Of a stretch of DNA of 64,000 bases, positions 12,300 through 64,000 are shown piece by piece (the stretch's first letter is position 1; the number at the start of each line of letters is the position of its first letter). Position numbers and translations under genes: made by a program. A model generated the notes under the pieces. It was given only the letters and a program-made list of their open reading frames with translations, had not been told where the DNA came from and did no database searches. The DNA is from a virus, in the IMG/VR virus record IMGVR_UViG_3300012006_000002, positions 38,767-102,766 of that record, one strand, 5' to 3'.

Positions 12300-12386
12300 G
12301 CTGGGATGATGAAATCGGTAGACATACCTGACTTAAAATCAGGAGGCGGACATTCCGTCGTGCGGGTTCGAGTCCCGCTCCCAGCA
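12300..12386 (+). tRNA. tRNA-Leu (anticodon TAA)
   Basis: Acceptor stem GCTGGGA/TCCCAGC; D-loop GGTA; anticodon arm CCTGA-CTTAAAA-TCAGG; long variable arm; T arm GCGGG-TTCGAGT-CCCGC; discriminator A; CCA not fully encoded. Confidence 0.95.
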
Positions 12387-12388
12387 CC

Positions 12389-12756: not shown

Positions 12757-12785
12757 TTGACAAGCGTTCCCGCTTGGCTTATAGT
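12757..12785 (+). promoter_or_regulatory. Near-consensus sigma70 promoter driving a non-coding transcript
   Basis: TTGACA-N17-TATAGT. Confidence 0.8.
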
Positions 12786-14572: not shown

Positions 14573-14601
14573 TTGACATAGACGAACCCGTCGTATACAC
14601 T
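14573..14601 (+). promoter_or_regulatory. sigma70 promoter with dyad in spacer
   Basis: TTGACA-N17-TACACT; GACGAACCCGTC at 14581-14592; followed by the GGCGGGAATCCCGCC leader hairpin. Confidence 0.8.
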
Positions 14602-52025: not shown

Positions 52026-55000
52026 ATGAACAATATCGAACATACCCGACTCGTTGCAATGGAGATGATGAATCCGCTGTTCAAGATTCTTGGTGAAGCA
52101 TCGCGCAAGAACGGAATGGCGTACTATGCGCGGCGGAACAAGAATCTGACGAAGGTGTTTGCGTCAATCAGGAAATTTCCTACTGGAAAGTTTGTGCCTG
52201 CCAGTGGAGTTTATGAGGGGGAACATGAAGGGGTCTTTGGCAACGACCGGAGTTTGTACTTACATGTCCGTCCAAGTCCTCAGCGTATAACCCATGTTGA
52301 TGGCGTGAACACGAGACTTCATCTAGACGATGAGGCAGACCGTCCAGTTCATCCATACATCGAATATATGCAGGTCAAGCCGGGAGCAGCCAATCCCGGC
52401 CCAGAGCATGCCCAGCAAGTATATGAAGCGCTGCATCGTCAGGGATATACCGGCGATACCATGAAGTTCCATGCGCCTACGGATGAAGATGGTCGGCGCG
52501 ACAAGAACGGGCTTAACAGGCGTCAGAGGTTATACCGTCCCTTTGTCCAAGGATGGAAGGACTTCATCCGGTCGAAGGGCAACAAGCAATACCCACCAGA
52601 GAAGTATGAGAACCTTATTAATATACATTTTGAGCGATCATTCGGGGGTCCGCTGTTCAAGATCCTTGGGGCACAAGCGCGCGATCAGGGAATGGACCGT
52701 CATCCACATGTGGCCGATGCGTTTGACTCTTCGGAAAAATATCCTACTGGCCACTTTGCCCCTTTTGGCGGTCATAGTGAGTGGGATGATAGTGCCAACC
52801 ATTGGGATGGACATGAGGGAATCTTCGGCAAGGACCGGGATCTTTATCTTCATGTCAAGCCTGCTCCGCAGCATGCCACTCATGTTGATGGAGAGAACAC
52901 AATGCTTGATCTGGATGACGAGGAAAACCGCCCAATTCATCCGTACATCCAGTACCTGCAGGTCAAGCCGGGAGCAGCCAATCCCGGCCCCGAGCATGCC
53001 CAGCAAGTATATGAGGCGCTCCATCGGCAGGGATATACCGGCGATACCATGGATTTCTTTGCACCTTCGGATTCGGATGGTCGGCGCGACAAGAACGGGC
53101 TTAACAGGCGTCAGAGGTTATACCGTCCCTTTGTCCAAGGCTGGAAGGACTTCATCCGCGCAAAGGGGTACAAGCAATACCCGATGGCAAAATCGTTGAC
53201 CAGACGGTTTTGGGAAAGGAAACCACAGGTTGGTGCTGCGCCACCTCCGGAGCCTGCGCAGGACAGGCCGAGTCTTGCCAGCCGCATGCTTGGAAAGGTC
53301 AAGGTCACGAGACGTTCTGGCTTGGAGGGAGCATCGGCAATTGCGTCAAATCCCAAGGCGGCGGGAAAGATAGCGCTTGACATGGCTGCTCCCGGAGCAT
53401 CCGCCATCGCCAGTGGTGTGCCCGCTCTTCCCAAGGTCGCGGGAGGGACCGATCTTTCCTCGCTGGTTCATCGCGTCGGTTCGAATCCGTCTGCGGAAAC
53501 ATGGGTCTCGTCAGGATTAGGAATAGTGCGTGGCGCTACAACCGGGTTGCTGGGAGTGCTAGTTCCCGGCGGAAGCAAGTCAATAGCAAGTTCTTCGGTA
53601 ACGGCAGGTTCGGGGGTCATGGACGGAATCAAGAAACTGGGAAGCGATCCTGATTTTGCTAGCGGGGCATCCGAATGGTGGCCAAGGAAGAAGGGTGCCC
53701 CGCATGCTGTTCTTCAGCATGCAATACGATTGGCTGCGGCTGGAAAGCAGATAACCAGAAGAGGGTTGTCTGATGCATTGGTTAGAGAAGAAATGACGGC
53801 ACCAATTGTCAGATCTCCTTCCGGAACATTTCATGACATACCTGACCTCATTGGTCCAAAAGTTTCCAATAGTAGCGGAATGTCCGTGTATGTTCTTCCC
53901 GCAGAACATCAAACCAGACATCTTGGCCCAATAGCCCACTATGGAAGCGACGAGAAATTCGGATCTGTCATACAGTTGAGTGGTCATGATGCTGAAGCAG
54001 AAGATTATAAAAAAATGTCAGAAATCATGCGTCCGATACTGGCAGCAGACAAGGCAAACCCCTATGTGGGAGGCATCACCGATCTCACGGGGAATATGGA
54101 TCACAAGAGAGGAAGGCAGATTGCGGGTACAGCGCAGCCTTGGGAAGAGGCAGAGCCGATTTCCTTTGATGGTCCGGAACACGCTTTTGAAGAATTCGAC
54201 AGAAAGCATAATGAAAACGGGGTTGGAAAGTCAATTGTCAAAAAAGGGGAAGCAGAGAAAGAAAGGCGTGCAAAGAAGAGAGAAAAAGAAGAGCAAGAAA
54301 AGCGCGCAAAAAAGCCGAGATATCGTGATGACGATATGGCATCGCGGATGGCCGCTCAAGAGCGCATGCGTACCGCACAGGACAGGATCAGGCCAGCCAA
54401 TCGCTCACGCCTTGAGCGATCATTGTCGTCCATGGAAAAAAGCGCCGCATGGCAACGCAAGGAAGGCAAGAACCCCAAGGGCGGACTCAACGCCAAGGGG
54501 CGGGCATCAGCCAAGCGCGAGGGCCACAATCTCAAGGCTCCGGTGAAATCGGGCGACAATCCTCGCCGCGCATCGTTTCTTGCCAGAATGGGCGGAAGTC
54601 CCGGCCCCGAATATGATGAGCATGGGAAGCCAACCAGATTGTTGCTGGCCCTTCGTGTGTGGGGAGCATCGAGCAAGGCGGATGCGAAGCGAAAGGCAGC
54701 GGCCATGAGCGAGCGGCTCAAGAAAAAGAAACTTGCAAAAGGCCGGGGCGAAGATGCGCGGCAAGACCATTTATTTTCCGGCGCTAAAGGATTTAGTGAA
54801 CGCGATTATCCAACGGGGCAAATGACGAAAACTTCGCAGCTAGGTGTATATGGTATGTCGCATATAGGTGTATTTGGAGAAAAGAGACATATTCTCGTAG
54901 AATCCCACAAAGCATACCCCGATAGCACTCACATTGAATGGGTACATATAGAACCCGGTACAAAAGTTGAACCACATCATATTACGGAGATTTTTGGAGC

Positions 55001-55835
55001 ATTGCATGACGCGGGGTACACGAAGCCGATGAGTTGGAGTGCGCTAGAAGACAATGATGAAAGATTTTCTGATCGGCAATCTTCCCGCAGGGATCGTCTT
55101 TTCCGTCCGCTGGCAGCTCAATGGGACAAATTTGTTGCGGCGAAGCAAGCCAAGATGAGCAAGGCAGAGCTAGACGCAAAAAAGCCAAACCATAATACCT
55201 CCGGCCCCCGTTCCCCCCGCTGGCAGCCCGCAGTTGGCCCAACGCTCACGCCACGCCAGATTGCCATTCAACAGCGAAGCGCCCAAAAATTGGCGGAACT
55301 TGCCGCCCTTCCGGCCGGATCTCCCCAAGCGAGAGAAGCGACTGTGCCCAAGCGATCACGGACACCGTTGATGCCAAGACGCTCGCAAGGGCTTCTCGCA
55401 TCATCCGCTGATGGCCATGTCTCTGTCGCGGAAGCCGCAAGAATACTCGGCATACCGCACTCGGCAGTGACGAAACATATCGAACGAGGTACGTTCCCCG
55501 CAAGATATGAAGCATCCAAGCGCACCATAGATACGAGTCATCCCCACTTCATCGCAGTCCGCGATGGCCTCCGGCAAGGCAAGACCATGAAGACCATTCT
55601 TTATGATCTTGAGGAGAAGCCAGTAACCGAGGAGGAAAAGAAGGACTCCTATGGCGAAATGTACGGCTATCCGCAAGGGAAACGCCGCTACCGCTCCTCA
55701 CGCACACGGACCGGCACGTCCAGACAAGCACGCCTCGGCCAGTACCAGAGAATCTCCCCGGTGACTGGCAAACCCAGCAAGAGTACGAGTCTGGGTCGCC
55801 CTCCCCTCGCTGATCCCTACGCGCTGTTTGATTGA
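52026..55835 (+). CDS. Multi-module polyprotein-like virion protein (3 related domains, DUF6321-like segment, HTH)
   Basis: Two near-identical ~180-aa domains plus a divergent third copy; AWQRKEGKNPKGGLNAKGRAS segment; VSVAEAARILGI excisionase-type HTH. Confidence 0.7.
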   Translation: MNNIEHTRLVAMEMMNPLFKILGEASRKNGMAYYARRNKNLTKVFASIRKFPTGKFVPASGVYEGEHEGVFGNDRSLYLHVRPSPQRITHVDGVNTRLHLDDEADRPVHPYIEYMQVKPGAANPGPEHAQQVYEALHRQGYTGDTMKFHAPTDEDGRRDKNGLNRRQRLYRPFVQGWKDFIRSKGNKQYPPEKYENLINIHFERSFGGPLFKILGAQARDQGMDRHPHVADAFDSSEKYPTGHFAPFGGHSEWDDSANHWDGHEGIFGKDRDLYLHVKPAPQHATHVDGENTMLDLDDEENRPIHPYIQYLQVKPGAANPGPEHAQQVYEALHRQGYTGDTMDFFAPSDSDGRRDKNGLNRRQRLYRPFVQGWKDFIRAKGYKQYPMAKSLTRRFWERKPQVGAAPPPEPAQDRPSLASRMLGKVKVTRRSGLEGASAIASNPKAAGKIALDMAAPGASAIASGVPALPKVAGGTDLSSLVHRVGSNPSAETWVSSGLGIVRGATTGLLGVLVPGGSKSIASSSVTAGSGVMDGIKKLGSDPDFASGASEWWPRKKGAPHAVLQHAIRLAAAGKQITRRGLSDALVREEMTAPIVRSPSGTFHDIPDLIGPKVSNSSGMSVYVLPAEHQTRHLGPIAHYGSDEKFGSVIQLSGHDAEAEDYKKMSEIMRPILAADKANPYVGGITDLTGNMDHKRGRQIAGTAQPWEEAEPISFDGPEHAFEEFDRKHNENGVGKSIVKKGEAEKERRAKKREKEEQEKRAKKPRYRDDDMASRMAAQERMRTAQDRIRPANRSRLERSLSSMEKSAAWQRKEGKNPKGGLNAKGRASAKREGHNLKAPVKSGDNPRRASFLARMGGSPGPEYDEHGKPTRLLLALRVWGASSKADAKRKAAAMSERLKKKKLAKGRGEDARQDHLFSGAKGFSERDYPTGQMTKTSQLGVYGMSHIGVFGEKRHILVESHKAYPDSTHIEWVHIEPGTKVEPHHITEIFGALHDAGYTKPMSWSALEDNDERFSDRQSSRRDRLFRPLAAQWDKFVAAKQAKMSKAELDAKKPNHNTSGPRSPRWQPAVGPTLTPRQIAIQQRSAQKLAELAALPAGSPQAREATVPKRSRTPLMPRRSQGLLASSADGHVSVAEAARILGIPHSAVTKHIERGTFPARYEASKRTIDTSHPHFIAVRDGLRQGKTMKTILYDLEEKPVTEEEKKDSYGEMYGYPQGKRRYRSSRTRTGTSRQARLGQYQRISPVTGKPSKSTSLGRPPLADPYALFD

Positions 55836-55880
55836 TATATATTTATTCATTGATACCCTCCCGGATCAGCATGTACCACC

Positions 55881-55951
55881 GAGAAATTTTATTTTTGGAA
55901 ATTTTTTCTGGAAATTTTTCTGGAGAATTTTCTGGAGAATTTTCTGGGAAA
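55881..55951. repeat. Tandem 12-13 bp T-tract repeats
   Basis: GGA(G/A)A(A/T)TTTTCT-like unit, about 5 copies. Confidence 0.85.
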
Positions 55952-56073
55952 CGGGAGCCTAATCGCCACTTTCGTGGCTTCCCCCTCCCCTCCCCCCCAG
56001 TGGCCGAATTAATTAATTTCTCACTCCCACCCACCCCCCACCCAGCCGGGTGAGTGGGCACCCATAGGCCCAT

Positions 56074-56110
56074 GGCCTCTTGAGTGGCCGGTCAGGCCAC
56101 TCAAGAGGCC
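56074..56110. repeat. Perfect 16-bp inverted repeat
   Basis: GGCCTCTTGAGTGGCC-GGTCA-GGCCACTCAAGAGGCC. Confidence 0.9.
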
Positions 56111-56230
56111 TGAGACGGGCCGGGGCCGCGTCCCTTGATGTTGACATATTGCACATATAGTGCCCTTACCCGAACTGCACCTGTGCCTCCGTGAGACCCC
56201 CTCTGGGATACACCCCCCAAACCGCCACAC

Positions 56231-56439
56231 CACCCACACCGGGGCCGCGCCCCTCTATCCACCCCCGACCGGCACACCGGGGCCGCGTCTCTGGAAGGGT
56301 GGTGGGCCTATACCATTCCCTGCGGGCGGCGATGCCGTTCCGGTCTGTACCATTCTCTAATGACAACGATGCCGTTTGTTTGTGTTAGTCTATAGCAGAT
56401 CGGTCGCGGGGGTAGGATCCGCGATCACAGGAGCTCCCG
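56231..56439 (+). repeat. Cassette element 1 (promoter/leader unit)
   Basis: Two CCGGGGCCGCG boxes 26 nt apart; doubled CT(A/G)TACCATT-N13-GATGCCGTT; TGTTAGTCT extended -10; hairpin; SD AGGAG. Confidence 0.85.
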
Positions 56440-56841
56440 ATGGCACGCACGCAACGCGATGGCACTAGTCCCCTTGGGCGTTGGATCCGCCCGGAGAAGC
56501 GTTACGCGATCTACGCGCGTGACGGATTCAAGTGTGCATATTGCACAAAGGATCTGCAGGTCGTGAAGCGCGAGCTGGATCGCCAGCTCGATCACCTTGA
56601 CGGGCGCGCGATCCGGTTCACGGCCGGTGGTCAGGCCGTCCGGAATAATCACCAGTCGAATCTGGTGACGGCGTGCGCGGGATGCAACGCCGCAAAGGCG
56701 GACATCGCGTTCGCAGTGTTTGCGAAGCGGTTCGCCGGTTCCCAGTCGCGCATCGCACGACTGGTGAAGCTCCCGTTGGACATTCCGGCGGCGAGGATCG
56801 CACTCGGGCTTCCGCCCGTGCGAGGGTACGTCCGGGACTAG
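56440..56841 (+). CDS. HNH endonuclease (cassette 1)
   Basis: RDGFKCAYC...LDH...NLVTACAGCNAAK. Confidence 0.85.
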   Translation: MARTQRDGTSPLGRWIRPEKRYAIYARDGFKCAYCTKDLQVVKRELDRQLDHLDGRAIRFTAGGQAVRNNHQSNLVTACAGCNAAKADIAFAVFAKRFAGSQSRIARLVKLPLDIPAARIALGLPPVRGYVRD

Positions 56842-56860
56842 TCCCGCACTCCGCCCGAGG

Positions 56861-57113
56861 AACCCCGGCTTCGGCCGGGGTTTTGTTTTGCCCGCAATCC
56901 GTCGCGGGTGTGGGAAATGGTACAGCCCCATCACCATTGCACCGGGGCCGCGTCCCTCCACCCACCCCCGACCGACGCGCCGGGGCCGCGTATGCTGTGG
57001 GGTGGGGGGGCATGACCCTGTACCATTCTCTAAGACCGACGATGCCGTTTAGACCTGTTACACTAGGGGCAGAGGTTGCGCCACCACACGCGCGACCCGG
57101 TCGGGAGGCCACC
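56861..57113 (+). repeat. Terminator + cassette element 2
   Basis: CCCCGGCTTCGGCCGGGG plus T-tract, then the full conserved element. Confidence 0.9.
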
Positions 57114-57308
57114 ATGCCCACTGCCACTGCCACCCTCGTGGAGCTCACTGCCCACGAGGCGTTTGCCTACTTCACCGAGCAGGTGAAGCAGGCGCACGCC
57201 GCCCGCGCACGCGCGCGGCACACCTACGCCTTGCGGAAGGCGGAGAACCGAATCCGCCATTGGGAGGCGGAGAAGCGACGCGCCCTCGCGGCCATCCGCG
57301 AGGGCTAG
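57114..57308 (+). CDS. Hypothetical protein, 64 aa (cassette 2)
   Basis: GGGAGGCCACC-ATG; MPTATATLVEL... Confidence 0.75.
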   Translation: MPTATATLVELTAHEAFAYFTEQVKQAHAARARARHTYALRKAENRIRHWEAEKRRALAAIREG

Positions 57309-57312
57309 TCCC

Positions 57313-57566
57313 AAGCCCCGGCTTCGGCCGGGGTTTTCTTTTGCCCGCAATCTGTCGCGGGTGTGGGAAATGGTACAGCCCCATCATCATTACACCGGGG
57401 CCGCGTGCCCCCACCCACCCGCGCCGAATGCGCCGGGGCCGCGTATGCTGTGGGGTGGGGGGGCATGACCCTGTACCATTCTCTAAGACCGACGATGCCG
57501 TTCAGACCTGTTACACTAGGGGCAGAGGTTGCGCCACCACACGCGCGACCCGGTCGGGAGGCCACC
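57313..57566 (+). repeat. Terminator + cassette element 3
   Basis: Near-identical to element 2 except for the 26-nt inter-box spacer. Confidence 0.9.
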
Positions 57567-57791
57567 ATGTCCACCACCCAAACCGCTGCGCCGCTCGCGC
57601 CCGTCGTTCAGGACGCGCTTGAGCGCGTTCTGGCCATCTACACGCGCGTCGAGCCGATGCTCGCCGCGCACGACGCCGTTGAGGCAGGCACGCGCATCCG
57701 CGACCTCGTCTACCTCGTGGAGACGATGCGCATCTCGGAGCGTAAGGCACTCGCGGAGATCGCGAAGGTGCGTGCGTTTATCCTCGGATAG
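57567..57791 (+). CDS. Hypothetical protein, 74 aa (cassette 3)
   Basis: GGGAGGCCACC-ATG; MSTTQTAAPL... Confidence 0.75.
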   Translation: MSTTQTAAPLAPVVQDALERVLAIYTRVEPMLAAHDAVEAGTRIRDLVYLVETMRISERKALAEIAKVRAFILG

Positions 57792-57810
57792 CCGCACGCA
57801 CTCCGCTCGC

Positions 57811-58069
57811 GAGACCCCGGCTTCGGCCGGGGTTTCTTTTTGCCCGCAATCTGTCGCGGGTGTGGGAAATGGTACAGCCCCATCACCATTGCACCGGGGC
57901 CGCGTGCCCCCACCCACCCGCGCCGAATGCGCCGGGGCCGCGTATGCTGTAGGGTGGGGGGGCATGACCCTGTACCATTCTCTAAGACCGACGATGCCGT
58001 TCAGACACCTGTTACACTAGTGGCAGTGGTCGGGACACCCAACACCCCGACCCGGCCGGGAGGGCCACC
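57811..58069 (+). repeat. Terminator + cassette element 4
   Basis: Full element with the GGTCGGG/CCCGACC leader. Confidence 0.9.
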
Positions 58070-58465
58070 ATGTCCACCATCACCACTCGCACCCCGCTGA
58101 AGGTCGCGCAGGAGTTTGTCCTGCCGTTCGTCGGCTTCCGCAAGCTGGAGGACGCAGACCTCGAAGGACGCTTGGACGTTCAGGAGGGTCTGCGCCAGTA
58201 CGTGATCGCCTACGATGGGCGCTTCGCGTTCATGCTGTCCTTGTACCGCGGGGCGGTCAAGGGCACCCTGTCCATCGGTCAACTGCGCGGGGCGGCCAAC
58301 GTCCTTCGCGCAGAGCTCGCGCCGAAGAAGGGCAAGGGCAAGGGCAAGGGCGCGCGCGCCGAAGATCCGGAGACGCGGGCGTTCCGCCAGATCGTCGAGT
58401 CCATCGAGGGCGACGGGTCTTACGCGCCCACGTGGGAGGACGCGCAGGACTACTTCGACAGGTAG
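58070..58465 (+). CDS. Hypothetical protein, 131 aa (cassette 4)
   Basis: SD GGAGG; contains a KGKGKG linker. Confidence 0.75.
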   Translation: MSTITTRTPLKVAQEFVLPFVGFRKLEDADLEGRLDVQEGLRQYVIAYDGRFAFMLSLYRGAVKGTLSIGQLRGAANVLRAELAPKKGKGKGKGARAEDPETRAFRQIVESIEGDGSYAPTWEDAQDYFDR

Positions 58466-58486
58466 TCCCGCGCACTCCGCCCGCGG

Positions 58487-58766
58487 AACCCCGGCTTCGG
58501 CCGGGGTTTTCTTTTGCCCGCAATCCGTCGCGGGTGAGGCAAATGGTACAGCCCCATCACCATTGCACCGGGGCCGCGTCCCTCCACCCACCCCCGACCG
58601 ACGCGCCGGGGCCGCGTCCATGTATGGTGCAATGCCTATACCATTTCCACTTTTCTCCATTGGTGTGAAGCCTGTACCATTCTCTCATTGTCAACGGTGC
58701 CGTTTGCTTGTGTTAGTATATAGCAGGTCAGTCGCGGGTGTAGGAACTGCGACTGCGGAGACACTC
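58487..58766 (+). repeat. Terminator + cassette element 5
   Basis: Full element with a doubled TACCATT box, as in element 1. Confidence 0.9.
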
Positions 58767-59168
58767 ATGGCACGCACGAAACGGGACGGCATCAGTCCCC
58801 TCGGACGTTGGATACGTCCGGTCAAGCGTCGCGCGATTTACGCGCGCGATGGCTACAAGTGTGGCTATTGCCAGAAAGACCTGCGGGTCGTCAAGCGCGA
58901 GGTGGATCGCCAGCTCGATCATATTGATGGTCGTGCCGTGCGGTTTACGGACGGCGGACAGGCGGTTCGCAATAATCATCAGTCAAACCTGATCACGGCG
59001 TGTGCCGCTTGCAATGCGGCAAAAGCGGACATCGCGTTCACGGTGTTCGTGAAACGCTTTGCCGGTGCAGACAAGCGCATCGCACGACTGGTCAATCTCC
59101 CGCTTGACCTTGTGGCAGCGAGGAACGACCTCGGGCTTCCGCCCGTGCGAGGGTACGCTCAAGCCTAG
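58767..59168 (+). CDS. HNH endonuclease paralog (cassette 5)
   Basis: 133 aa; 27 differences from the 56440 protein by manual alignment (~80% identity). Confidence 0.85.
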   Translation: MARTKRDGISPLGRWIRPVKRRAIYARDGYKCGYCQKDLRVVKREVDRQLDHIDGRAVRFTDGGQAVRNNHQSNLITACAACNAAKADIAFTVFVKRFAGADKRIARLVNLPLDLVAARNDLGLPPVRGYAQA

Positions 59169-59174
59169 CAAGGG

Positions 59175-59421
59175 AACCGCCCCGGTCAAACCGGGGCGGT
59201 TTTTTCGATCCGCAATCCGTCGCGGGTGTGGGGTAATGGTACAGACCCCCCACCATTGAACCGGGGCCGCGTCCCATGTGCCACCCCCGCCGGATGTGCC
59301 GGGGCCGCGTCCATGTATGGTGCCGGGGGTGTACCATTATCCGATGCCGATGATGCCGTTCGCACCTGTTAGTATATAGCAGTGGTCGGGACTGTCAACA
59401 CCGACCCGGCTGGGAGGCCAC
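59175..59421 (+). repeat. Terminator + cassette element 6
   Basis: ACCGCCCCGG-TCAAA-CCGGGGCGGT plus T-tract, then the full element. Confidence 0.9.
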
Positions 59422-59931
59422 ATGCAGAATCGCTCACTCTCAACCCGCGTGCGGGTGGAAGCCCTGATCAGGCAACTGGAAGAACACCTTCCACGATACC
59501 GCAGTAATGCGGAGGTCGCCAAGACCAATCCCATGCACTTCAGGAGTGTATGGAGTTATACAAGCAACATTACTCCGCAATATATTACGGAGTATTATGC
59601 GAAAATCCTCTCGGATTTGGAGACGACCATCAACAATCTCAAGAACGACCTTCAGCACAGCACGTATGCTGATGATGTCTCCCGACAGGTTGTCATCAAG
59701 ATATATAATGATGAGAAGAATGAAGCTTCTTATCGTATACTTGAGATCGAGAAAATGTACTTCACGGACATCAATGACCCCAATCTCTATTGGGTAGTTG
59801 AGAGTAACCACGGGGACGGGTGGATGGTATGTGACGATACCGACCGTCCTGCGGATCTCCCCGCAATCTGGAAACGGGCCACAAGCCGGGTGCTTGTGGG
59901 TCAGGTGGGAGATCACCTGCACTTCGCCTAG
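59422..59931 (+). CDS. Hypothetical protein, 169 aa (cassette 6)
   Basis: SD GGAGG; ORF bounded by element and terminator. Confidence 0.75.
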   Translation: MQNRSLSTRVRVEALIRQLEEHLPRYRSNAEVAKTNPMHFRSVWSYTSNITPQYITEYYAKILSDLETTINNLKNDLQHSTYADDVSRQVVIKIYNDEKNEASYRILEIEKMYFTDINDPNLYWVVESNHGDGWMVCDDTDRPADLPAIWKRATSRVLVGQVGDHLHFA

Positions 59932-59935
59932 GGTC

Positions 59936-60179
59936 AAGCCCCCGATTAGGGGGCTTTTCTTTTGCGCCGATTGTGTCGCGGGTGTGGGAAATGGTACAGC
60001 CCCCCCACCATTGAACCGGGGCCGCGTCCCTCTGCCCACCCCCGACCGACGCGCCGGGGCCGCGTCCATGTATGGTGCCGGGGGTGTACCATTACCTGAT
60101 GCCGATGATGCCGTTCACACCTGTTAGTATATAGCAGTGGTCGGGACACCCAACACCCCGACCCGGCCGGGAGGGCCAC
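59936..60179 (+). repeat. Terminator + cassette element 7
   Basis: Full conserved element. Confidence 0.9.
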
Positions 60180-60494
60180 ATGACGACCGAGACCGTGACC
60201 AACACGATCTACAGCTTGACTGCGAGTATGCCGGGATGCCTGCCGGATAGTCAGGATGTCTATCCCGATCTCGCAAGCGCGCGGGCGGCGATGCCAGCCT
60301 TGATCCAGAGCTGGGCAGACGGATGGGAGTTTGTCTACGAGAACGGGGTGGAGGTTCCCAACGAGTACTGGGAGGTCGTCCAAGGGGACGACTGGGCTGA
60401 CCTCACCATCGGAAGGTACTCCAGCATCCTCATCCGGATCAATCCGGTGGATGTTGACTGGGACTGGGAGGACGACGAGTACCGCGCTTACTAG
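60180..60494 (+). CDS. Acidic hypothetical protein, 104 aa (cassette 7)
   Basis: D/E/W-rich; SD GGAGG. Confidence 0.75.
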   Translation: MTTETVTNTIYSLTASMPGCLPDSQDVYPDLASARAAMPALIQSWADGWEFVYENGVEVPNEYWEVVQGDDWADLTIGRYSSILIRINPVDVDWDWEDDEYRAY

Positions 60495-60501
60495 GTCGCA
60501 C

Positions 60502-60755
60502 GAGACCCCGGCTTCGGCCGGGGTTTTCTTTTGTCCGCAATCTGTCGCGGGTGTGGGAAATGGTACAGCCCCATCACCATTGCACCGGGGCCGCGTCACT
60601 CCACCCACCCGCGCCGAATGCGCCGGGGCCGCGTATGCTGTGGGGTGGGGGGGCATGACCCTGTACCATTCTCGAAGACCGACGATGCCGTCCAGACCTG
60701 TTACACTAGGGGCAGTGGTCGGGAGACGACACCCCGACCCGGCCGGGAGGGCCAC
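60502..60755 (+). repeat. Terminator + cassette element 8
   Basis: Full conserved element; perfect dyad GACGATGCCGTC. Confidence 0.9.
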
Positions 60756-61091
60756 ATGGAGTACACGACCACCGACGCGCGGCTTGTCGAACTTGCACAC
60801 GCAAGGGCGACGGCCCTGTGGGATGCTCTGGATTTGGGGCAGGAGGGTGCGATAGAGGCGGGCGAAAAGGTCGCCGAAATGGACTACATATATGAGGGTT
60901 GCCTACGCGACGGGAAGTTCTCATATGTAGAAGCGTTAGTTGCCATCCACCTGACGCATCAGTTTTTGTCGGGTCTAAACGTGCAAACGTGGAAGGACGA
61001 GGGCGAGGAAGAGCAGGAGGACGAGCGGACTAACCCTCGGGATTATCCCGAGGAGGCAGGCTTGTACGACGTGATGATGTACGAGCGGTAG
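60756..61091 (+). CDS. Acidic hypothetical protein, 111 aa (cassette 8)
   Basis: MEYTTTDARL...DEGEEEQEDE. Confidence 0.75.
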   Translation: MEYTTTDARLVELAHARATALWDALDLGQEGAIEAGEKVAEMDYIYEGCLRDGKFSYVEALVAIHLTHQFLSGLNVQTWKDEGEEEQEDERTNPRDYPEEAGLYDVMMYER

Positions 61092-61096
61092 CCCTC

Positions 61097-61345
61097 AACC
61101 CCCCGACGCCAGTCGGGGGGTTTCCCTTTGCCTGCAATCTGTCGCGGGTGTGAGGCAAATGGTACAGCCCCATCACCATTGCACCGGGGCCGCGTCACTC
61201 CACCCACCCGCGCCGAATGCGCCGGGGCCGCGTATGCGTATGGGTGGTGAGCCTGTACCATTACCTGATGCCGATGATGCCGTTCACACCTGTTATCATA
61301 TAGCAGTGGTCGGGACACCCACCCCGACCCGGCTGGGAGGCCATC
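61097..61345 (+). repeat. Terminator + cassette element 9
   Basis: Full element; -10 variant TGTTATCAT. Confidence 0.9.
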
Positions 61346-61693
61346 ATGAACGCATTGTCAAAAGTTGAGTTGTGGCTGAACAATGACGATACGCTGTACA
61401 AGCGTATCAACAACATCGTTGACAGCGCATGGGAGACGGTTCAGCAAACGTCTACCCGTGAGAAGGGCGAACCCCGCCGGAATGAGTGCATTTTCCTCAT
61501 TCGGGATAGTCTGGAGGAAATCATGGAAGAGGTTTACGACAATGTTGTAAGCCAACTTGATGCCTACACTATGGATCTCGTTGGAGGCGACATATTGCGG
61601 GCGGCTATAGACGACTTGGATCTGGCGATCCTTGCCAATCGCCTACTGACATCCCGATGGGATGACTGCAAGTACGTGCATGGCGAACTCTAA
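61346..61693 (+). CDS. Acidic hypothetical protein, 115 aa (cassette 9)
   Basis: LWLNNDDTLY motif; SD GGAGG. Confidence 0.75.
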   Translation: MNALSKVELWLNNDDTLYKRINNIVDSAWETVQQTSTREKGEPRRNECIFLIRDSLEEIMEEVYDNVVSQLDAYTMDLVGGDILRAAIDDLDLAILANRLLTSRWDDCKYVHGEL

Positions 61694-61696
61694 AAC

Positions 61697-61899
61697 AAAG
61701 CCCCCCGGTTTGGGGGGCTTTTCTTTTGCGCCGATTTCGTCGCGGGTGTGGGGCCGGGGCCGCGTCTGCCATTGTGTCGCGGGTGATGAGCGATTGGTGC
61801 CGAGCCTGTACCATTACCTGATGACAACGATGCCGTTCAGACCTGTTAGTATATAGCAGTGGTCGGGACTGTCAACCCCGACCCGGCTGGGAGGCCACC
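61697..61899 (+). repeat. Terminator + shortened cassette element 10
   Basis: One GGGGCCGCG box, duplicated TCGCGGGTG, no AATGGTACAG. Confidence 0.85.
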
Positions 61900-62124
61900 G
61901 TGACGATCAAGGAATACAAGGCTATCGGTAGGGCCATCGGAGAGAGTGTCACCTACGAGGGCGACAGGATCGAGCTGTGCAACCAGCTCTACAAATCCAT
62001 CTCCGCGCTTCAGGGTCGCAAGACCCTGACCGTCAACGGCAATCGTCGATTGACGTGGGAGGATTTGCTGGAAGCGGCAAATCTGCCGCTCATCTACGAC
62101 GCGCCGTCATTGCGCGGGTTTTAG
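61900..62124 (+). CDS. Hypothetical protein, 74 aa (cassette 10)
   Basis: GGGAGGCCACC-GTG start. Confidence 0.7.
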   Translation: MTIKEYKAIGRAIGESVTYEGDRIELCNQLYKSISALQGRKTLTVNGNRRLTWEDLLEAANLPLIYDAPSLRGF

Positions 62125-62134
62125 TCCATTGACA

Positions 62135-62308
62135 CGGGCGTGACTTGGGGCGCGATGCTTGCAGGCGTCGCGCACAGGGGTGCGCCCACCATCCAAACCG
62201 CTGCACCGCGCTTGCGCGGAGGGGAGGGTGGACTGCTCATCGTTGCTGAATGGGGCAGCCCAAACAGCGAAATAATGATGAGTGGGAGAGGGTATATAAG
62301 AGACCCTC
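62135..62308 (+). ncRNA. Candidate structured RNA in the 3' region of cassette 10
   Basis: Four consecutive hairpins with G-U pairs between the stop codon and the terminator. Confidence 0.4.
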
Positions 62309-62310
62309 AA

Positions 62311-62563
62311 GGAACCCCTCCGGCGTTGGGCCGGAGGGGTTCCCTCTTTGCCATTGTGTCGCGGGTGTGAGGAAATGGTACAGACCCCCCACCATTGAAC
62401 CGGGGCCGCGTCCCATGTGCCACCCCCGCCGGATGTGCCGGGGCCGCGTCCATGTATGGTGCCGGGGGTGTACCATTACCTGATGCCAACGATGCCGTTC
62501 GCACCTGTTAGTATATAGCAGTGGTCGGGACACCCAACACCCCGACCCGGCCGGGAGGGCCAC
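62311..62563 (+). repeat. Terminator + cassette element 11
   Basis: GGAACCCCTCCGGC...GCCGGAGGGGTTCC hairpin, then the full element. Confidence 0.9.
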
Positions 62564-62917
62564 ATGACGACCCCGATCACGATCACTAAGTACGGCTATC
62601 CGCTGCGAGAGGATTGGTCATGGAGCTCGTTCCCCACCCAACAGACCGGGTTGGGGCTTGAGCTCCATCACCATGAAGGACATGTTGCCTTCAATGTGCT
62701 GTTGCCTGATGGCAAGGCACAAAGGGTGCTGGTCTTCGCGGACTACCAGATGCGCGAAGATAACTATTCTCTATGGGCATGCCGTCCAACCGTAGAGATT
62801 GTGTGGGAGGGTGTGACCATGCAGCGACTGAAGCTCGATCAGGGCCAGTCGTCATGGCAATCCATGCGCATCTATATCATGAAGGAGGTTATAAGGTTCT
62901 GTCAAGAAAACTTCTAG
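62564..62917 (+). CDS. Hypothetical protein, 117 aa (cassette 11)
   Basis: SD GGAGG; bounded by element and terminator. Confidence 0.75.
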   Translation: MTTPITITKYGYPLREDWSWSSFPTQQTGLGLELHHHEGHVAFNVLLPDGKAQRVLVFADYQMREDNYSLWACRPTVEIVWEGVTMQRLKLDQGQSSWQSMRIYIMKEVIRFCQENF

Positions 62918-62921
62918 CACT

Positions 62922-63086
62922 AGCCCCCCGGTTTGGGGGGCTTTTCTTTTGCGCCCAATCTGTCGCGGGTGAGGGCGATTGGTGCCGAGCCTGTACCATT
63001 ACCTGATGCCGATGATGCCGTTCACACCTGTTATCATATAGCAGTGGTCGGGACACCCAACACCCCGATCCGGCTGGGAGGCCACC
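62922..63086 (+). repeat. Terminator + minimal cassette element 12
   Basis: Lacks both GGGGCCGCG boxes but keeps TGTCGCGGGTG, CTGTACCATT, GATGCCGTT, the -10, the hairpin and the SD. Confidence 0.85.
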
Positions 63087-63407
63087 ATGCTGATCCGGAA
63101 CTTGAGCGATTTTGTCAAGTCATTTGACAGCGCGCCCTACGCGTGGCCCGGTGGGTATCCCACCTACTACGTCACCGCTGATGGGGAGGCCCTGTCGTAT
63201 GACGCGGTGGTTGACAACATAGAGGAGGTTATCTTCGCCATTGTCAACCCGGAGTACGGGGACGAATGGAACGTCATAGGTCTTGATATAAACTACGAAG
63301 ACCATGATCTCTATTGCGCTCACACGCACAAGCGTATAGAGAGCGCATACGGATCTGCGGAGGAGGAGTTCAAGCCAATCAACTTTGAGGAGAACATCTA
63401 CTTCTAG
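63087..63407 (+). CDS. Acidic phage protein with YAWPGGYP motif, 106 aa (cassette 12)
   Basis: YAWPGGYP...DGEAL...INYED..LYC.H...IESAYG. Confidence 0.75.
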   Translation: MLIRNLSDFVKSFDSAPYAWPGGYPTYYVTADGEALSYDAVVDNIEEVIFAIVNPEYGDEWNVIGLDINYEDHDLYCAHTHKRIESAYGSAEEEFKPINFEENIYF

Positions 63408-63430
63408 CACCTGTCTGTGCTAGTCATACA

Positions 63431-63684
63431 GGACACTCCGGTTGTGTGGCCCGGAGTGTTTCTGTTTGCCCGCAATCCGTCGCGGGTGTGAGGAAATGGT
63501 ACAGACCCCTCACCATTGCACCGGGGCCGCGTGCCCCCGGCCACCCCCGCCGGATGTGCCGGGGCCGCGTCCATGTATGGTGCCGGGGGTGTACCATTAC
63601 CTGATGCCGATGATGCCGTTCACACCTGTTAGTATATAGCAGTGGTCGGGACACCCAACACCCCGACCCGGCCGGGAGGCCACC
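63431..63684 (+). repeat. Terminator + cassette element 13
   Basis: Full conserved element. Confidence 0.9.
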
Positions 63685-63930
63685 ATGGGAAACCCAAACA
63701 ACTTTACACTTGTCTACGCATATGATGCGATAGACGTTCTCAAGAAGTACGCACGAAGTAACTATGTCAGTGGAGGACATTGGGCAGTAGAATCATTGGA
63801 AGATAATGATTATCTACAGTTTCTTCCAGATGGATTTACCGCCTTCAATGCTTCAGATATCGAATACGCAAAGAAGAGGCTTCGCGAGTGGTGGATGTTG
63901 GCAGTGGAACAGGAACAGGATTGCTACTAA
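63685..63930 (+). CDS. Hypothetical protein, 81 aa (cassette 13)
   Basis: GGGAGGCCACC-ATG. Confidence 0.75.
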   Translation: MGNPNNFTLVYAYDAIDVLKKYARSNYVSGGHWAVESLEDNDYLQFLPDGFTAFNASDIEYAKKRLREWWMLAVEQEQDCY

Positions 63931-63955
63931 TCTAATGTCTGGAGAGGAAACAACA

Positions 63956-64000
63956 ATGAACGAATCTAGTATCAAGCGGGTCTACGAAGAGACATTGCGT
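63956..64000 (+). CDS. Partial ORF running off the window
   Basis: SD GAGG; MNESSIKRVYEETLR...; not preceded by a cassette element. Confidence 0.45.
   Translation, partial: MNESSIKRVYEETLR

Follow-up and report, generated by a model that had tools for sequence, protein, structure and literature searches.

The window analysed here is a stretch of 64,000 nucleotides, the last 64 kb of a 102,766-bp IMG/VR virus record that is classed there as 'linear' and has a CheckV completeness of about 59%. Towards its end lies an array of small genes separated by copies of one conserved non-coding element: 13 promoter modules and 24 copies of a short box, CCGGGGCCGCGT, all on the + strand, are found at 56.1–63.9 kb, and such clusters of motifs occur only here in the 102,766-bp contig. 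The genome has a G+C content (GC) of about 43%, and the 56–64-kb stretch forms an island of 56–66% GC. A preliminary description, made from the letters of the DNA alone, had reported 13 single-gene cassettes ending at position 63,930. Reading positions 55,800–64,000 and aligning the 13 intergenic regions, we find this array largely as described; however, not all units have a single gene, as cassette 13 holds a second one, starting at 63,956, and the contig breaks off within the array, which continues beyond 64,000 in a contig from another strain. We consider it likely that this is an early region of the host-takeover type, built from repeated regulatory cassettes, in an uncultured freshwater myovirus-like phage.

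Anatomy of the repeated element

Each unit consists, in this order, of an intrinsic terminator, conserved upstream motifs, an extended −10 promoter, a 5′ hairpin, a strong Shine–Dalgarno sequence (SD) and a small orphan open reading frame (ORFan). The element measures about 250 nt (range about 170–300 nt, and up to 440 nt with a 3′ tail) and has 60–67% GC. The spacings between motifs given in the preliminary description (16, 26, 18 or 26, 13 and 6 nt) are borne out, and the full unit it proposed is present in 10 of the 13 elements, which are numbered E1 to E13 in Table 1; of the other three, E10 has one box and lacks the left arm of the inverted repeat described below, E12 has neither boxes nor left arm, and E1, with which the array starts, is a variant.

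The promoter pattern GTACCATT-N12-16-GRTGCCGTY-N5-8-TGNTANNNT occurs 13 times, always on the + strand and once in front of each open reading frame (ORF), with 0 copies expected from shuffled sequences. In 12 of the 13 intergenic regions, a terminator-like hairpin with a T-run follows the gene and precedes the promoter module, the exception being E1, which follows no gene. The −10 variants TAGTAT, TACACT, TATCAT and TAGTCT are confirmed and all keep TGnTAnnnT, thereby retaining T−12, A−11 and T−7 together with the TG at −15/−14. Variation of the TAnnnT type with an upstream TG would be the expected signature of an extended −10 promoter of the sigma70 family. No −35-like hexamer was found in the + strand promoters of the 13 elements, which lie in surroundings of 60–67% GC; extended −10 promoters function without one.

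TACACT and TAGTAT also serve as −10 hexamers of canonical TTGACA-17 promoters elsewhere in the window, two of which are at 14,573 and 16,932, and the host polymerase evidently reads these hexamers. By their predicted sequences, the promoters of this phage form two classes, which differ in the −35 region. Members of the other class, with the form TTGACA/TTGACG-17-TAnnnT, are located at 12757, 12974, 14573, 16932 and 19000 (+), where they front genes of the replication region.

In 20 of 20 leaders examined, a conserved GCAG is followed by a leader hairpin of 7–9 bp, for which at least six distinct stem sequences are used, among them GGTCGGG/CCCGACC, GGCCGGG/CCCGGCC, GGTTGCGC/GCGCGACC and TGACCGG/CCGGTCA. 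This covariation of the stem means that the hairpin is a real RNA structure at the extreme 5′ end. Stem-loops at the 5′ end shield mRNAs from 5′-end-dependent decay, and by analogy the leader hairpin probably gives the same protection here. It is followed by a GGGAGG ribosome site, often placed in the loop of a small GGCC/GGCC hairpin. In two of the 13 elements only, E6 and E10, the leader loop CTGTCAAC forms a near-consensus antisense promoter, TTGACA-16-TATACT (11 of 12 matches), at 59398–59371 (−) and 61875–61848 (−), overlapping the + strand −10; the copy in E10 faces a bidirectional terminator about 140 nt away, at 61717–61702 (−), and antisense RNA through the E10 element is possible.

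Between the terminator and the promoter lies an upstream module with a set of invariant, strand-specific motifs: GATGCCGTT (about −30 to −22), TGTACCATT (about −52 to −44), one or two copies of the CCGGGGCCGCGT box (about −72 to −121) and, completing the set, GTCGCGGGTG and the inverted partner AATGGTACAG. Searched as a 12-mer with at most one mismatch, CCGGGGCCGCGT is present in 24 intergenic copies (24 of 24 on the + strand) against 0.33 expected, and paired boxes always stand 38 bp apart from start to start. The long form of the element covers 157–166 nt from GTCGCGGGTG to the −10, with the left arm AATGGTACAG and two boxes, and accounts for 10 of the 13 elements in the window. A medium form of about 92 nt has a single box, and a short form of about 76 nt has none and retains an AATGGT/ATTGGT-N11-ACCATT pair. 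As most long forms carry local AATGGT-N11-ACCATT pairs at both ends, the short form looks like a deletion between copies of this 23-bp site.

We rejected a long-hairpin model of the inverted repeat for its lack of covariation: the 21 predicted pairs show 0 compensatory changes over 12 copies, with a covariation term of −0.14. Folding energies of the module are ordinary for its base composition, with z-scores of −0.4 to −3.2. Taken together, the missing covariation and the ordinary folding mean that the invariant motifs are better read as protein sites than as folded DNA or RNA, and the module most likely comprises sites at which a regulator of the host or of the phage would bind to switch, or insulate, all the units together.

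Table 1. Positions in the window of the repeated elements, the genes between them and the junction before the array
Feature	Position	Strand	Remarks
Junction before the array	55886..56131	+	four to five 12-bp TTTTCTGGAGAA-type repeats (repeat family D16), C-tracts, AATTAATTAA, perfect 16-bp inverted repeat, lone box CCGGGGCCGCGTCCCTT
E1, HNH variant	56101..56439	+	three boxes, no left arm, −10 TAGTCT, duplicated TACCATT..GATGCCGTT, own leader hairpin
Cargo 1, HNH endonuclease, 133 aa, pI 10.4	56440..56841	+	PHROG HNH families, best E 1e-11
E2, long	56842..57113	+	terminator, GTCGCGGGTG, AATGGTACAG, two boxes, CTGTACCATT, GATGCCGTT, −10 TACACT, leader stem GGTTGCGC/GCGCGACC
Cargo 2, 64 aa, basic	57114..57308	+	no family match
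E3, long, E2 type	57309..57566	+	
Cargo 3, 74 aa	57567..57791	+	no family match
E4, long	57792..58069	+	−10 TACACT, GGTCGGG-type leader
Cargo 4, 131 aa, GC3 0.89	58070..58465	+	no family match
E5, second HNH variant, long	58466..58766	+	extra TATACCATT copy, own leader hairpin
Cargo 5, HNH paralog, 133 aa	58767..59168	+	79% nucleotide identity to cargo 1 (repeat family D9)
E6, long	59169..59421	+	−10 TAGTAT
Cargo 6, 169 aa	59422..59931	+	no family match
E7, long	59932..60179	+	mixes blocks of the E2 and E6 types
Cargo 7, 104 aa, acidic, pI 4.1	60180..60494	+	no family match
E8, long	60495..60755	+	−10 TACACT, GGTCGGG leader
Cargo 8, 111 aa, acidic	60756..61091	+	no family match
E9, long	61092..61345	+	−10 TATCAT, distinct right arm
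Cargo 9, 115 aa, acidic	61346..61693	+	no family match
E10, medium	61694..61899	+	one box, no left arm, GTCGCGGGTG duplicated
Cargo 10, 74 aa, GTG start	61900..62124	+	about 200 nt untranslated before terminator
3′ tail of cassette 10, then E11 (long, from about 62320)	62125..62563	+	
Cargo 11, 117 aa	62564..62917	+	no family match
E12, short	62918..63086	+	zero boxes; ATTGGT-N11-ACCATT and promoter core only
Cargo 12, 106 aa, acidic	63087..63407	+	small widespread phage family phrog_18452 / phrog_18238
E13, long	63408..63684	+	
Cargo 13, 81 aa, acidic	63685..63930	+	sharply bounded divergent allele compared with strain contig L127
Cargo 14 (69 aa in L127), start; second gene of cassette 13	63956..64000	+	runs to contig end

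Strain contigs and a related lineage

The array extends well past the window. Contig L127, from the Joint Genome Institute (JGI), aligns at 94.7% identity over 62,977–64,000 and continues via gene 14 (69 aa) into three further units; L130 has the last of these in common (601 nt, 100% identity) and adds four, and L129 is a 98% variant of L130. This 94–95% identical strain has at least seven additional units past the end of our contig, and the whole array probably comprises at least 20 promoter units and at least about 25 genes. The final 46 nt of L127 (3452–3497) are a palindromic fold-back artefact of assembly, and the true continuation is taken from L130.

Within the window, 56,700–59,640 and 59,849–63,109 were recovered at 99.7–99.8% identity in JGI contigs L131 and L132, each of which spans four to five elements, and L128, from a 94% strain, retains the order of gene 4, HNH gene and next element. 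The sequence is present in sequencing runs of 12 studies of lakes and other fresh waters, dated 2013–2025, and short-read assemblies, including the present record, break at the repeats of the array.

Among strains, the elements are better conserved than the genes between them: E5 and its L128 counterpart show 2 differences over 301 positions, against 71 over 798 for the genes on either side (p = 2e-8). The alignment with L127 has 2 differences in the 678 nt that precede gene 13, 52 in the 267 nt over it (63655–63921) and 0 in the 79 nt that follow (p = 5e-28). This shows constraint on the elements or their homogenisation, plus what appears to be at least one exchange of an allele bounded by conserved flanks. 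The elements themselves are mixed at the level of sub-blocks, with TACACT promoters joined to two leaders, terminator types joined to various promoter types, and mosaic segments between the boxes; E4, which joins a TACACT −10 to a GGTCGGG-type leader, is therefore a recombinant of two element types.

In the four overlapping segments from strains of 94–99.8% identity, the cargo order is always the same, and no cassette was seen to be gained, lost or moved. The preliminary description had regarded an identical order of cargo in related genomes, with no gain or loss, as evidence against a platform for gene shuffling; close strains do show this identity of order in the four overlaps, while the cargo of a more distant relative (below) appears different. 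Joints in public contigs that seem to skip a part of the array or to go back in it were considered as rearrangements or circles and rejected, because they are really cassettes beyond the window (A, D and F), the flanks of which match window elements. One other joint, 61769>56345, connects an E10-like left part to an HNH-type promoter via 15 extra bases, GTATAGGTACGTACC, in three runs from different studies; it probably represents either a further HNH cassette or a variant strain whose upstream element differs.

Five IMG/VR records encode a DnaE-type DNA polymerase 60–65% identical to that of this phage. One of them, a 130-kb record that is 75% complete (G002; polymerase 63% identical), begins inside an analogous array of five units, placed 390–480 bp apart on the opposite strand in an island of 57–62% GC. 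Its unit has a terminator, one box (with the 13-mer CCGGGGCCGCGTC identical), GCGGCACAC repeats, a palindrome AATGCGCCGCATT near −35 and the extended −10 TGGTATCAT, and is without a leader hairpin. All five boxes have the same orientation relative to the genes as in the window, and alignment reveals a GTACMAT-N17-GCCGT core common to both arrays. The four cargo proteins of G002 are, by eye only, unrelated to those of the window. On this evidence the platform is an old one in this phage group, and its cargo seems to turn over.

Beyond this lineage, we found no close relative among records of cultured phages, either by DNA or by the HNH protein. In IMG/VR, a two-box pattern matched only coding tandem repeats, a loose GTACCATT..GATGCCGT pattern gave chance matches, specific element patterns that included the promoter core gave zero matches, and a pattern from box to −10 returned G002 alone plus chance matches. 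The promoter-core pattern was not found in 185,579 genomes of bacterial and archaeal species, which hence offer no clue to a prophage or a host. A match from a metagenome scan (L126) was rejected as a relative, being a chance match within a coding region. A search for related loci with the neighbouring 1269-aa protein found none, and a scan against Rfam gave nothing at gathering score, its matches being terminator look-alikes.

Readings of the array

In the reading that we consider likely, a strong intrinsic terminator would close each unit and a host sigma70-family promoter of the extended −10 type (TGnTAnnnT, without a −35) would open the next. Transcripts would start a few bases before the 7–9-bp stem-loop, which probably guards the mRNA from decay that depends on its 5′ end, and the GGGAGG site and small ORFan that come next would give each gene strong, independent expression, insulated from its neighbours. 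The upstream motifs would be bound by a host or phage regulator that acts on all units together. The elements, at about 250 nt, would also supply the homology for ordinary homologous recombination, and this could account for the mosaic of sub-blocks, the three lengths of element, the doubled HNH cassette and the replacement of an allele within cassette bounds, so that a dedicated site-specific recombinase would be unnecessary. The earlier proposal of a plug-and-play platform for early genes is reasonable in this form: self-contained expression units, a hypervariable region and at least one apparently swapped allele stand, and integron-like mobility does not.

Several points weigh against this reading. 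The public runs that contain the region include no RNA run, and the use of the promoters, the transcript starts and the 'early' timing are inferred. The array promoters are without a −35 while other promoters of the same phage have a consensus one, and, like the middle promoters of T4, those of the array could form a second temporal class, dependent on an activator. The boxes are located as far upstream as −72 to −121, which is atypical for simple repression. Finally, the evidence for turnover driven by recombination consists of a single allele replacement, the mosaicism of the elements and a cargo that appears different in a distant relative.

A more specific version of the host-takeover reading, which we put forward only tentatively, is that a single regulator, be it a global factor of the host or a stoperator-like protein of the phage, docks on the conserved upstream module and gates or insulates at least 20 early units at once. 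The argument for it is drawn from the oriented CCGGGGCCGCGT boxes, the AATGGT..ACCATT half-sites and the GTACMAT-N17-GCCGT core, conserved between lineages whose polymerases are 63% identical. If true, this would be a new case of early phage expression wired to host physiology, like the proposed CtrA-dependent 'lytic deferment' discussed below, and the module would serve as homology for cassette exchange as well.

Of the alternatives, the one that survives best, although we think it unlikely, is that the promoters are of an activator-dependent, 'middle' type, with a MotA/AsiA-like protein acting on GATGCCGTT or TGTACCATT, or else are promoters of a phage RNA polymerase. The absent −35, the invariant 9-mer at about −30 to −22 with a second invariant motif upstream of it, and the canonical −35/−10 promoters elsewhere in the phage are all in keeping with this, and to our own eye ACACTAGGGG and TATAGCAG faintly resemble initiation regions of the T7/SP6 type. 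However, the variation of the −10 obeys TAnnnT with an upstream TG, unlike what single-subunit polymerases use, and an extended −10 works without a −35. The motif is also restricted to the array, whereas promoters of phage polymerases are spread over middle and late genes. A T7-type RNA polymerase domain is found neither in the contig nor in the five incomplete relatives, which is weak evidence, as no control genome matched.

It is improbable that the module of inverted repeat and boxes acts as a folded nucleic acid, whether as an RNase III-type site or second terminator in read-through RNA or as a cruciform, origin or entry-pause signal in DNA. Its 10-bp terminal arms do pair in every predicted fold, its position between terminator and promoter would place it in read-through RNA, and the array adjoins a region of repeats that resembles a terminus or an origin. 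Yet the 21 predicted pairs are without compensatory change, right-arm variants such as GCCGAGCC fail to restore pairing with the left arm, and the z-scores are mostly unremarkable, whereas the 5′ leader hairpin does covary, so that the method can detect structure at this locus.

We regard as very improbable the integron-like organisation that the preliminary description had proposed, that is, a site-specific cassette platform in which the ~115-bp inverted repeat would be attC-like, its single-stranded fold would be cleaved by a recombinase whose gene lies in another part of the genome and the cassettes would be excised as circles. The array does share with integrons its short cassettes in one direction with imperfect inverted repeats between them; two HNH nucleases lie within it, and a recombinase could lie in the missing ~40% of a contig that is about 59% complete. 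However, integrons depend on IntI, on attI and on one Pc promoter shared by cassettes that are typically promoterless, whereas every cassette here has its own promoter and terminator. Sites of the attC type are defined by structure with little conservation of sequence, whereas the arms here are invariant in sequence, the interior is without compensatory pairs and the folding energies are ordinary. The module is also dispensable, being absent from the medium and short elements, the apparent joints are cassettes beyond the window, and the cassette order is the same in close strains. The core motif of attC sites, GTTRRRY, has only 5 occurrences in the 8.2 kb of 55801–64000, too few for every cassette boundary. 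As the preliminary description had noted for the part in view, no integrase was found: tyrosine recombinases (PF00589), serine recombinases (PF00239), RecA, RecT and ERF are not found in the 102.8-kb contig (59% complete), nor is PF00589 in the five relatives, the largest of which is the 130-kb, 75% complete record.

Slightly less credible still is a miniature inverted-repeat transposable element (MITE), repeatedly inserted between genes, for the module between AATGGTACAG and CTGTACCATT. It has 10-bp terminal inverted repeats, a length of about 115 bp and many copies, and is absent from some sites, but no target-site duplications were found at the arms, all copies point the same way and keep a constant place with respect to the promoter, and the short form keeps the right arm with an AATGGT/ATTGGT partner 11 nt off, as expected of a deletion and not of an unoccupied site. 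There are none elsewhere in the genome and, by the promoter-core pattern, none in the 185,579 bacterial and archaeal genomes or in IMG/VR.

An artefact of assembly, or a chimera made from several phages, is extremely improbable as the source of the repeats: the elements are indeed break points of short-read contigs and L127 ends in a fold-back, but 2.9 and 3.3 kb of the array recur at 99.7–99.8% in independent JGI contigs (L131 and L132), with four to five elements each, in the same order, which a 94% strain also shows, and the sequence is present in runs from 12 studies.

Known systems, cargo and the junction

The array is best filed as an elaborate form of the repeated promoter–terminator cassettes known from phages, and not as an integron. 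The comparison that had been drawn with the promoter/stem-loop (PeSL) cassettes of T4-type phages is apt. In RB49/phi1, PST and nt-1, PeSLs combine a terminator with early promoter motifs in front of ORFans in hyperplastic regions, where they mediate modular exchange and form mini-circles (PMC2839356, PMC4122927). Likewise, the window has a repeated composite of terminator and promoter with the SD and start codon at the 3′ end of the element, the repeats would be points of homologous exchange between otherwise unrelated genes, and the cargo consists mostly of ORFans and appears entirely different in the related lineage G002. It was also rightly said that the element is longer and of a different architecture, at about 170–300 nt, GC-rich and with an extra module. 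PeSLs are short and AT-rich with a full −35/−10 sigma70 consensus, whereas the array elements have 60–67% GC and no −35; the stem-loop of a PeSL is a terminator in or beside the promoter, whereas the array keeps its terminator apart from its 5′ leader hairpin, which covaries; and the ~110-nt module of invariant one-strand motifs is additional. Insertions and deletions between close relatives have been shown for PeSLs and were not seen in the four overlapping strain segments here. Furthermore, phages with PeSLs are T4-type, and the present phage, with its DnaE-type polymerase, is not T4-like by its replication genes.

A second parallel is provided by phiCbK-like and other phages of Alphaproteobacteria, which have terminal repeats with small genes and dense intergenic sites for the host regulator CtrA (PMC9437464; Gill et al. 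2012, PMC3556154); the authors of the former study read the density of these sites as gating of early expression by the state of the host, or 'lytic deferment' (PMC9437464). In the terminal repeat of Caulobacter phage CcrPW we count eight copies of a 65-nt element, 370–690 bp apart, with TTAA-N7-TTAA, a promoter, a 5′ hairpin and an SD. In both phages, small genes of unknown function each come after a repeated element with a terminator, a promoter with a transcription-factor site (a putative one in the window), a 5′ hairpin and an SD; those of CcrPW adjoin the genome end, with repeats close to the physical terminus, and those of the window adjoin a terminus-like region. A homolog of cargo 12 is found within the CcrPW terminal repeat, and, as in the phiCbK type generally, the density of motifs is kept despite turnover of cargo. 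They differ in that the CcrPW element contains the CtrA box and the array element other motifs: the box TTAA-N7-TTAA and the half-site TTAACCAT are each found 0 times in 55801–64000. The array element is also three to four times longer, and the lineages are unrelated. As cultured phages show the same design, for example in this terminal repeat (PMC9437464), calling the array the best candidate for a new system was an overstatement.

The host-takeover module of phage SPO1 is a terminal cluster of about 24–26 small, strongly expressed early genes (PMC6873191). Its many promoters and ribosome sites are strong, as is predicted for the array, it is situated near the genome end, and its products take over the host; it differs in being made mostly of short operons with ordinary sigma-A promoters, a long, conserved inter-cassette element with extra motifs being unreported there. 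The boxes also recall the stoperators of L5 and other Cluster A phages (PMC9283540), since CCGGGGCCGCGT is likewise an asymmetric site of 12–13 bp with more than 20 intergenic copies, in an orientation tied to transcription. Stoperators, however, are distributed genome-wide in temperate phages and bound by the immunity repressor, whereas the boxes are limited to one array of a large, probably virulent phage, in which they stand upstream of promoters and downstream of terminators.

The array thus extends a repeated promoter–terminator design of early regions, known in T4-type, SPO1 and phiCbK-like phages, to an uncultured group of freshwater phages, and does so in an extreme form, with at least 20 units, a 250-nt element and non-coding DNA that is conserved above the genes. 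It provides a list of at least 25 candidate genes for host takeover or anti-defence, together with natural parts for insulated expression (promoter, 5′ stabiliser, ribosome site and terminator), and the protein that putatively binds the conserved short motif could show how such phages time or condition their early expression.

In agreement with the preliminary description, the cargo consists of ORFs of 64–169 aa that are, by eye, mutually unrelated except for the two HNH paralogs. Searches of Pfam and PHROG gave matches only for these two and for cargo 12, which belongs to an unnamed family, and none for any other cargo; look-ups of cargo 4 and 6 in the ESM Atlas gave no usable match. Homologs of cargo 1 were found in six metagenomic clusters at 67–97% identity. 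The best homologs of cargo 12, at 36–50% identity, lie within the terminal repeats of the Caulobacter phages CcrPW and CcrBL9, and more are found in phages of Sphingobium and Brevundimonas. The GC of the cargo drops along the array, from 0.64–0.70 in genes 1–4 to 0.43–0.53 in genes 9–13 and beyond, while the elements stay at 60–67%. The GC island, a tRNA-Leu(TAA) gene at 12300–12388 and the relatives of cargo 12, which form the whole basis here, suggest a high-GC freshwater host, perhaps among the Alphaproteobacteria, and the GC island also hints at early genes tuned to the unmodified machinery of the host. At 62125–62330, cassette 10 has a GC-rich, hairpin-prone 3′ tail, the only long one in the array.

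The junction in front of the array (55886–56131) has a counterpart in G002 at L194 1800–1960, where 12-bp T-tract repeats, a homopurine/pyrimidine tract, AATTAATTA and a lone box identical over 17 nt (CCGGGGCCGCGTCCCTT) precede the first promoter. It is also similar to the GGAAATTT-type repeats that phage CcrPW carries close to its physical left end (L216 418–556), and it may be the site of a genome terminus, a pac signal or an origin. In G002 the T-tract repeats are directly followed, at 1930–1975 of L194, by TGATACACT (an extended −10, TACACT), behind which starts a gene that diverges from the array and leads into about 6 kb of genes with 57–62% GC; this region across the junction may be a second early region. 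In one run (X3, covering 54000–63508), contigs of unique cargo have a depth of 23–39 against 16 for 54000–56633, contig depths being unreliable; an approximately twofold depth is what a direct terminal repeat would be expected to give, and mixed strains could give the same. Lastly, the 1269-aa ORF that adjoins the array contains a direct repeat of 300 nt (52223–52522 and 52811–53110, 82% identity), which indicates a domain duplication in what is probably a virion protein.

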